The position numbers and the translations under genes are program-made. Below are positions 57,701 through 60,700 of a stretch of 64,000 nt of DNA, in pieces (the stretch's first letter is position 1; each line of letters opens with the position of its first letter). This DNA is from Lingula anatina (lineage: Eukaryota > Animalia > Brachiopoda): contig CM120642.1 in the NCBI GenBank assembly GCA_051362555.1, positions 10,912,001-10,976,000 on the forward strand, given 5' to 3'. A model generated the notes under the pieces. It did no database searches. It was not told the origin of the DNA and worked only from the letters and a program-made list of their open reading frames with translations.

Positions 57701-60700
57701 CCAAACCATATTACGTATTACATCTACAACCACTGTGCTATCTGGCCTGATGACAAGTACGTAGAAACGAGAGTGAAATGTTGATCTTAAAGAGACAAAC
57801 TGTAAGAAGAATAACTTCTGCGTAAAATGATTCCTCTAGGCAAAGATCAGCAGATTTACTTTTTGTGCACACAAAGTCAGGTCATTGTTCTGTTTCAGTG
57901 AACATTGACTTGGTAGCCTGTGCCACATAAACCCTCTCCAAACCATTTTGTACTCTCTGCTTAGTGAGAATATGGAATTACACAAAGAGGGACATGTTTT
58001 GTTTGTCATTCTTACTACAGAAAATGATTTTGTATATGCAATTTGCTTTCTCGTCTGTCAGGCCTGTAGTTAATAAAACATTTATTAGACATCTTATATG
58101 CCAAAGAAGTAGACTAGTTTCATTTTTATCTTTAGGTCAAAATGGCCAGCTGGGTTCAGGGCAAATGGGCACCTGCTGCTGAACTCTGAAAAGGTACAAA
58201 CCATACTTTAATTTCAACTTTTTATTGGAAGAAAAGAGTTTCATACTCACCTTCAAAGTTATGTCTTTTGAAAATTCTGTTTTGATGGTTAAATTTGGTA
58301 AAAGCTTTAATATTAGATTGTACACTTATTTGTAAAAAAGATAAAAATGTTAAGTTTAATTTGCTATTGATGCAAGTGGTTGTATTACAGATGTCCAAAT
58401 CTACAGGGAATTTCTTGACACTAATGCAGGCAATAGGCAAATTCTCTGCCGATGGTATGCATACAGATAATGGAGAAATCACATAACATGTACTCCATGC
58501 ATTACTGTTTGGCAATTTGATCTTTGGTTTCTGAGAGCAAAATATATATGGTATATTTGTATGATATCTGAAGGCAAAAGAAGTTTGGCATGGTATGCAA
58601 TAAAATAAAGCTTTGAAATGAAAAATATTTATTACAATGGAGAACAGGAACCAAAGTGCCAACAGTGAGAAAGCTGGTCATTGACAAATAGTAATGCTGT
58701 GGTTAAGGTGGCTGGATGGAGCATGAAACAGGAAGGGATTCTTATGTTGAGGAACCAGTATTTTAATACCAGCATATATACCAAAGATCAACTACTTTAG
58801 GTTAGAACTACAGTGAAATATCCTTAAGAAAGTTTTGTTGATAAAATGAATATCCATGTTGAACTTACTTAAACCAGTTGGACTTAACACTATTCAATCA
58901 AGTCCAATTTTGAAGATCTTATTGTTTTTTGCTTACTTATCATTACAAATAAATTGTGAAGATGGTGCTAAAACCCAGTTGATCTTTGGGCATGGCTGTT
59001 CTTGGTGACTCTACATAGGTAGCTTATTAGTAATCAGTGTCGTAATGGAATATTCTGTGTCCAATTTTTTCTAGATGTCAAAACAAACTGGCAACTTTTT
59101 GACATTGTATGATGCCATTGCAAAATTCTCAGCAGATGGTAAGGGGTTGCGTGGTTTGATGCACTGGCTTTTTTCCTAACAATTTGTGAAAATGGAGGGC
59201 CATTTGATTGACATATTTCTCTGACTAGGATAGTTCTTTGTTTCCATTTAATAATTTGTGTTTGTTTGATCACAGACTTTTGTTATAAACTTTATCAGTG
59301 TGAGGAAGCCAACATTACTGTGTTCTAGACCCAGAATTGTCCAATTTTCAGTTGTCGTAATATACCTGTCAGTCTGTTGCTTTTCATGTTTTGATAAGCA
59401 TAGAATTCACAAATATAAACCACTAACCTTGTTGTCATATTAGTCAAGATTGTTTGTCACAAAGGAAAATTTGTGTTGTTTTATTTTCCTATATGCTTGA
59501 GTCAAATTTTGGTTTGTTGTCTTGGGTGTTCACTGCTTTGTTACAGCTAGGACATGTTTTTATTTCTTTCACTACAAACCTAGACTCCATCAATTGGAAT
59601 CTATTTTATGCATAGTTGTAAAACACTGTTTTCCAAAAGTTCATGATGCTCTTTCAATGATTATTTTTGAGTAGTATGCTTGATTAACTTATGATTGGTC
59701 TTCCAGCATTTTGGAAGTGTTTTAAGTTTACATTCACATCAGCAAATAATCTTGGTATACATTTGAATTAAATGGAATCTTAGTTTAAAATATTTAGGTA
59801 TTTGCATGGCATAAAATAACAGTTTAATTTTTAGTCCTTCACTTCATATAACTGTTGTTGCTTCTGTTAATGCCAACTGTTTTTAAACAACTGTCCTGAA
59901 ATGTTACAAAGGTCATATGATGCAAACAGATGTAACGGTCAATGATGATGAGCAGATGTTATTATTTTAATTTATTTATTTTTTGAGATATTTTGACTAA
60001 ATGTTTGCCTTGGATTCCTGTCCTAGGTATGCGCTTGGCTCTGGCAGATGCTGGCGACACCCTTGAAGATGCAAACTTCGTTGAAGCAATGGCGGATGCA
60101 GGTCTGCTGCGCCTGTACACGTTCTTGGAGTGGGTGAAAGAGATGTTGTCCACTGCTGACAAGATGAGAACAGGACCTATGGATAGTTTTAATGACAAGG
60201 CTTTTATCAAGTAAGTCTCTTTGTCCAAGTTGCTGTAATTATTCCAGCCAAATCATATGTACGGGTAGGGTTTCATCAAATATAAACAAAGTTAACTGGT
60301 TATGTTACTTGAACGGATTGTGCACAACTGAACAATAAAAAAAGGATGCAAACATTTTGAAAAGGAAAGATGTGTTTAAATCAGAAATGCTCTATTGATT
60401 TGGAACAAGGTTTTAAATCGGATCATGAAATGATCAAGAAAATGAAGTTTTGCATGAAATTTGTGACTGATAACAGTATGATTAGGAATTTACTAGTTCA
60501 AAAGTTGAAATAGCCAGGTTTTTTTGAAGATGTATTAAGAAATAGGATTGAATTGATTTTTCCAGTGAGATGAACAGTGCCATTTTGCTGACAGAGCAGA
60601 ACTATGAGAAGATGTTGTTTAAGGAGGTGGTGAAGTCTGGATTCTTTGAATACCAGGTGTGTTTCAGACAAGTTGACATTATTTTGAATTAAAAATTTTT

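Follow-up and report, generated by a model that had tools for sequence, protein, structure and literature searches.

The stretch of DNA analysed here (64 kb, hereafter the window) encodes, from position 48727 onward, a cytoplasmic leucyl-tRNA synthetase (LARS1), for which spliced mapping of the public protein P0001 placed 28 exons with 4 mismatches over 1,069 residues. On the plus strand, constitutive exon C1 (58136–58193; spliced mapping of P0001 and RNA joints), which ends at the K of the KMSK motif, is followed by two alternative exons of 64 nt each, exon A (58391–58454; RNA joints, spliced mapping and protein P0001) and exon B (59075–59138; RNA joints, splice-site scoring and protein P0122), and then by constitutive exon D (60027–60210; RNA joints and spliced mapping of P0001), with an intron of 620 nt between A and B. 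Exons A and B share length and phase, are identical at 43 of 64 nucleotides and 17 of 21 residues, and give the motif the forms KMSKS and KMSKQ, respectively. Both protein forms are already public: P0001 and P0122, from the same contig, differ at four residues, every one of them within the alternative exon. Eight of nine fourfold-type third positions differ between A and B, and because third positions are near saturation, the exon duplication is old. Elsewhere in the window, neighbouring genes appear as reading frames at 20182–47178, one of them ending in a long Ser/Pro/Gln-rich exon (31449–32843), and among the exons there are what we take to be an exosome subunit-like protein (minus strand, 38–39 kb), an RNA polymerase I subunit-like protein (plus strand, 43–45 kb), and a NudC-like protein (minus strand, 46–47 kb).

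Exon use was followed in reads from four RNA runs of three studies (X12, X15, X18, and X14; 6–25% of each run sampled), with a joint listed only if it had at least three reads at two starts, and with mates possibly double-counted. In that order of runs, C1–A joints numbered 22, 0, 3, and 40, C1–B joints 0, 5, 0, and 1, A–D joints 12, 2, 7, and 16, and B–D joints 1, 4, 0, and 1, giving A-type to B-type ratios of 34:1, 2:9, 10:0, and 56:2; on the upstream joint only, X15 differed from X12 with p ~1e-5 and from X14 with p ~4e-6. Neither an A–B joint nor a C1–D joint was among the joints listed in the four runs, where decay might conceal such forms. The two exons are mutually exclusive and their use is sample-dependent, mainly A in three runs and mainly B in one, so the premise of the initial annotation, that LARS1 has two exon variants here, stands on all four inclusion joints, and the pair is regulated. 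We infer that the shift in X15 reflects tissue or condition rather than genotype, since X15 has five listed exonic variants in common with X12 and X14; the listed variants within the alternative exons (58402, 58405, and 59113) are synonymous third-position changes. In the B-using run X15, read depth was 1.8 across 58296–58389, the intron before exon A, with two A–D and no C1–A reads, and from these very few reads the blocked step in X15 may be the acceptor of exon A.

Splice sites were scored with a matrix derived from the remaining sites of the gene, and the acceptors of both alternative exons were weak, at 0.7 bits for A and 0.6 bits for B vs 6.0–16.1 bits for the gene's others, while the donor of A was weak (4.4 bits) and that of B strong (9.4 bits). 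The U12 donor consensus is GTATCCTT; an incompatibility between U2 and U12 sites was looked for, and none of the three introns, with donor hexamers GTACAA, GTATGC, and GTAAGG, has a U12-type donor. Because each exon is 64 nt, transcripts with both or neither shift the frame, double inclusion leading to a stop inside exon B and double skipping to a stop inside exon D. With at least eight introns after exon D, such premature stops lie upstream of later junctions, and nonsense-mediated decay would likely clear double inclusion.

At the protein level, a full-length alignment to P0122 comprised 17 sequences including its own isoform, with 60–70% identity in 16 named animal proteins, which, going by identity, suggests an invertebrate source with no close relatives in the protein collection. 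A comparable exon pair was not seen in annotated isoforms of eight other animal species, whose isoform pairs differ elsewhere, as judged among the members listed of large clusters (15 of 17, 15 of 167, and 15 of 35), and a metagenome scan of 80 loci gave no close relative and no locus where two KMSK exons occur (one motif in 72, no motif in 8). Among 244 motif-bearing proteins, the fifth motif residue was S in 229, Q in 14, and N in 1. KMSKQ is tolerated in other proteins, and the four swapped residues sit at positions variable among animals, so both isoforms are likely active. Individual proteins (P0146, P0147, P0030, P0260, and P0276) carry Q at the fifth KMSKS position in two oysters and one hemichordate, and N and H in two venerid clams. 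The oyster S/Q pair (P0154 and P0158 vs the KMSKQ proteins) was considered as a further exon pair and set aside, given at least six differing sites along the protein; it looks like an allelic or species-level difference, or possibly an exon pair. Separately, P0123, a 264-residue C-terminal LeuRS fragment near-identical to P0001, comes from a different contig of the same collection entry and would be a haplotig or partial duplicate. A literature search over main texts, few of them from subscription journals, found no account of this enzyme having a mutually exclusive KMSKS exon. The firm result of this work is that an animal leucyl-tRNA synthetase swaps exons in its KMSKS loop in a regulated way, and the pair lets one ask directly whether small changes beside the ATP-binding lysine adjust charging or the sensing of leucine from tissue to tissue.

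The A–B intron carries several complementary segments, and all those named in the initial annotation were recovered at the positions and with the pairing given there. The 5′-most, R0 (58497–58515), has three possible partners in folding and duplex scans, namely 58657–58668, 58681–58697, and the exon A donor region 58446–58463; the second of these pairs with 58499–58515. R1 (58517–58533), the upstream site, begins 62 nt after exon A and is predicted to pair with R2, 58522–58533 matching 58645–58656 over 12 bp with one G-U. With its extension, R2 (58645–58668) is the predicted 3′ arm of a first hairpin domain, with a duplex energy of −29.4 kcal/mol. R3 (58780–58793), the central site, is matched twice: 58780–58791 is the exact reverse complement of 58517–58528 in R1 (12 bp), and 58781–58793 that of 58977–58989 (13 bp), the downstream site R4, which lies 85 nt before exon B and ends ~56 nt 5′ of a likely branch point near 59045, itself placed by eye. 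Within 57757–60030, R4 and R1 are the best partners of R3, the next reaching −12.4 kcal/mol. An 11-mer shared between R1 and R4, whose complement lies in R3, has three sites when the two strands of the window are counted, all in the A–B intron, and just one further, distant site if one mismatch is allowed. The R sites are thus not a dispersed repeat in the window, an objection that had been raised in advance, and in two DNA runs they attracted no contigs belonging to other loci.

How unusual this pairing is depends on the control. The 11-mer triad occurred in none of 10,265 dinucleotide shuffles and in none of 101 other 620-nt stretches, and the four ungapped stems at or below −15 kcal/mol were matched by none of 6,691 shuffles and by 4 of 202 real strand-stretches, these four being repeats or GC-richer sequence. 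At least two competing stem pairs were found in 7 of the 6,691 shuffles vs 7 of the 202 real stretches, so that judging by shuffles exaggerates the rarity by a factor of 30 or more; likewise, 13-mer repeats per real stretch exceeded those in shuffles about tenfold, both inverted (5 vs 0.4) and direct (9 vs 0.7). The fairest control for stem count is the gene's own introns, where the other 28 hold four such stems in total, giving 0.28 expected vs 4 here (Poisson p 2e-4). The intron is the most helix-rich of the 29 in the gene, and its claimed peculiarity in pairing is upheld. An Rfam search returned no matches up to E 1.

Also present in the intron, at 58590–58599, are 10 nt copied from the donor context of exon A, seen in a repeat-family listing and by local alignment, within the loop of the first predicted domain. 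The stretch 58540–58599 resembles a decayed exon A copy ending in that donor copy, with 7 of 1,000 shuffles as good in one of five tests, and 58590–58599 is possibly the end of such a copy (~58540–58599). No splice joint from this donor copy was among the joints listed in the four RNA runs, and alignments that looked for duplication relics in the flanks and between the intron halves found none. A further decayed exon copy near 58657–58720, suggested by eye, was missed by alignment (630 of 1,000 shuffles as good for exon B) and was dropped, as were repeats at 58877–58916 and 59241–59275 proposed from short other-locus matches, which by a rough estimate are within chance at 80% likeness.

Folding was modelled by nearest-neighbour prediction, which is protein-free and uses energy models imperfect for a 600-nt RNA. 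Two hairpin domains are predicted to form together, domain I (58502–58533 with 58645–58668) and domain II (58781–58793 with 58977–58989): R1:R2 had a probability of 0.996 and R3:R4 of 0.986, both together, at 20, 25, and 37 °C in three contexts, where R1:R3 was at P ~0 throughout. Domain I reaches ~24 bp through R0 pairing with 58657–58668, and its 7-nt bulge (58515–58521) includes five R1 bases pairable solely by R3; domain II, closed by R3:R4 (13 bp, −17.9 kcal/mol, P 0.99), holds in its loop a local hairpin of 9–10 bp (58876–58909, P 0.97). The 17-bp stem of the initial annotation does exist, but 58681–58697 is a minor partner of R0 in the full intron (P ~0.1) vs 58657–58668 (P 0.76). The proposed comparison of folding with shuffles was likewise divided, with favourable values for the two domains (z −2.55 and −3.3, boundaries chosen afterwards) but an ordinary whole intron, no better than shuffles (z −0.95; z −0.91, 28 of 153 as good). 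As isolated duplexes, R1:R3 (−15.4 kcal/mol) and R3:R4 are similar in strength. Forcing R1:R3 was 11.5 kcal/mol worse at 37 °C than the two compatible domains; the pairing reached at most 0.034 across 11 co-transcriptional snapshots, and it stayed at or below 0.002 upon in silico deletion of R4, R2, or both. When it was forced, the accessibility of donor A dropped from 0.41 to 0.04, with R0 covering that donor, which it does not do in the free ensemble. R0 is the best donor-complementary element of the 29 introns (−17.1 kcal/mol, next −13.1), with 51 of 2,000 shuffles as good and p ~0.03, uncorrected. Because deletion of R2 fails to move R0 onto the donor (at most 0.16, further deletions included), a role for domain I in shielding the donor from R0 is weak in the model.

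Relative to the exons, R1, R3, and R4 all lie within 58517–58989, and R1:R3 and R3:R4 alike span no exon and leave the splice signals uncovered; the sole tie to a splice signal runs through R0 and the exon A donor. Scans between the upstream, middle, and downstream introns found no exon-crossing helices above shuffles (94, 293, and 281 of 300; 16 of 113 as good). A candidate docking duplex over exon A (58244–58268 with 58985–59009, −19.2 kcal/mol) was rejected, as 16 of 113 shuffles reach that energy and the duplex is absent in context. The putative selector positions do not match, R1 lying after exon A and R4 before exon B, and in the flank alignments 965 and 634 of 1,000 shuffles scored as well as the real sequence. 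By coordinate arithmetic, the path from donor A to the branch point of B is ~590 nt in linear form and ~190–220 nt via the strong helices alone, falling to 43 steps only if short exon-involving helices are trusted. Steric exclusion operates within a donor–branch point distance limit of 50 nt, and the path of 190–220 nt over the strong helices far exceeds it, which the 43-step path would not.

Among known systems, the nearest layout is that of human ATE1 exons 7a/7b, where R1 and R4 compete for R3, as outlined in Kalinina et al. 2021 (PMC7797038): there too, tandem mutually exclusive exons flank an intervening-intron site complementary to one site before and one after. The ATE1 rivals are described as conserved and as lying over each exon's 3′ splice-site region (PMC7797038), whereas in LARS1 both rivals lie in one intron, no splice signal is covered, and one rival is predicted to be taken up already by pairing with a fourth element. 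Docking/selector systems (Dscam1 exon 6, 14-3-3zeta, Mhc, MRP1, and the bidirectional srp type), in the outlines given in PMC6071210 and PMC11802352, resemble LARS1 in that, close to duplicated exons, a single site is complementary to several others. In those systems the docker is in the intron to the left or right of the cluster and the pairings loop exons out, whereas the LARS1 pairings cross no exon; by geometry, the LARS1 locus falls outside that group. Internal introns are reported in the account of Ivanov and Pervouchine 2018 (PMC6071210) to have no tendency to pair with each other. The structure-mediated steric hindrance that the initial annotation ascribed to 14-3-3zeta was not found in the portions of PMC6071210 and PMC11802352 dealing with these systems. 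LARS1 does belong to the class of tandem mutually exclusive exons as delineated in Hatje et al. 2017 (PMC5740500), with homologous exons of equal length not divisible by three, a common and a regulated variant, and no joining reads; the word LARS is absent from the main text of that paper. In LSV3, a splice variant of human LARS, a 213-nt exon is skipped and the product is described as catalytically dead (PMC8941210), which resembles our case as tissue-dependent splicing in the catalytic domain of a cytoplasmic leucyl-tRNA synthetase and differs from it as an exon skip vs a four-residue swap; going by size, the LSV3 exon likely matches the 216-nt exon at 57541–57756 here.

Natural variation was drawn from DNA contigs of runs X2, X3, and X10 under the same species label, with 40 of 236 substitutions and 12 of 49 indels listed. 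Divergence from the window ranged from 1.4% (X3, 58040–59764) to 6.9% (X10, 58579–59760), with the 49 indels falling in 2.8 kb. One natural haplotype, in an X3 contig, has an 18-nt tandem second copy of R3, which indicates that the R3 segment gets copied by local mutation and removes the R3 shortage on which a competition would rest; the predicted fold is kept, and R1 is still placed on R2 with R3 to spare. In X2 and X10, 58535–58578, the loop just after R1 and the 5′ part of 58540–58599, is replaced by 84 letters, and contig totals indicate that there are probably two further substitutions in 58505–58534. The R2-arm substitutions among those listed (58648 and 58668, X2 and X10) both preserve pairing, which says little because by hand count ~18 of 24 R2-arm transitions would do so anyway. 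Among the substitutions listed, the arms are not visibly spared, with 2 in the 24 nt of R2 vs a background of 6.9% in X10. By calculation, 7% divergence would leave a 13-bp helix intact only ~15% of the time. Read depth in X3 and X10 stayed level across R1, R3, and R4; in X2, ~58800–58980 is covered only by other-locus contigs, a gap that proves nothing. For a second organism, B (X11), a single exon piece aligned at 84%, alongside short pieces that are possibly chance. At 59760–59768, X3 and X10 bear 29 and 39 extra letters, partly self-complementary, that are absent from the window.

A and B are versions of the KMSKS-loop exon, and these results lead us to a tentative main reading (probability about 0.4), in which trans-acting splicing factors would choose between them by working on weak splice sites, as the sample dependence suggests, and the intron would fold into two compatible hairpin domains that act as a static scaffold. 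Domain I may keep R0, complementary to the weak exon A donor, off that donor, both domains may shorten the path from donor A to the B branch point from 590 nt to ~190–220 nt, and nonsense-mediated decay would remove double inclusion as a backstop. A scaffold role is, from the modelled folds, a candidate function of the intron structure, and the R1:R3 match would reflect the related words that make up both hairpins rather than a second functional state. Nearly as likely as this static fold is a neutral relic, possible where local duplication and inverted copying, for which templated insertion is a mechanism, act in a fast-changing intron, with exclusivity coming from weak sites, proteins, and decay alone. 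The second tandem R3 in X3, the replaced loop beside R1 in X2 and X10, the density of indels, the window-wide excess of local repeats over shuffles, the exon A donor copy inside the intron, and the real stretches that equal its stem count are all consistent with such an origin. So is the exclusivity itself: 60% of human clusters are described as having frame-shifting lengths, and because most are reported to lack joining reads too, the missing A–B reads need no structure (Hatje et al., PMC5740500). Against it, the other 28 introns, exposed to the same mutation process, total four such stems, the matching real stretches are repeats or GC-richer sequence, and the triad is in none of the 101 real stretches. 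The old duplication and the flanks without homology further mean that the perfect helices must be recent or kept.

The readings in which the intron changes state fared less well. We regard as unlikely a protein-assisted, riboswitch-like cascade within the one intron, with a bulged toehold and an anti-donor strand, that swaps the KMSKS and KMSKQ forms. By default, domain I would hide R0 and exon A would be used; in a B-type tissue a factor would open domain I or hold R4, R3 would capture R1 via the 5-nt bulged toehold, and the freed R0 would mask the exon A donor. The drop in donor accessibility under forced R1:R3, the five bulged bases that only R3 can pair, the default use of exon A in three of four runs, and an R0–donor match that tops the gene would all fit. 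The cost of 11.5 kcal/mol weighs against this, as do the failure of R1:R3 to exceed 0.002 and of R0:donor to exceed 0.16 with R2 and R4 removed in silico, and the persistence of R1 on R2 in the presence of a spare R3 copy; the factor is hypothetical, and the donor match is p ~0.03 before correction. If true, it would be RNA-structure control without looping out an exon and without one selector per exon. More doubtful still is the model of the initial annotation, in which R3 is a docking site contested by R1 and R4 and the winner picks the exon. R3 is indeed perfectly complementary to two sites, above chance, with isolated duplexes of similar strength, and ATE1 has, in the account cited, a central site between exons with two rivals (PMC7797038). 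Yet R1 is predicted to be held by R2, R1:R3 is at P ~0 in every context, at most 0.034 in the co-transcriptional snapshots, and at or below 0.002 with its rivals deleted, all sites share one intron without looping out an exon or covering a splice site, exon-crossing helices are no better than shuffles, R1 and R4 occupy non-matching positions relative to the exons, and a natural haplotype has two R3 sites, so that this switch is improbable. The intron structure, if functional, would matter as a layout unlike known systems, and the case cautions that statistically strong one-to-two complementarity need not amount to a working switch.

Two repeat elements were seen in other LARS introns. A dispersed repeat at 57865–58002 and ~56230–56340 occurs as two copies in neighbouring introns with matching translations, the former drawing many contigs from other loci. 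Intron 1 holds, at 48894–49205, two GC-rich tandem copies of an element that is presumably tRNA-like and possibly a SINE.
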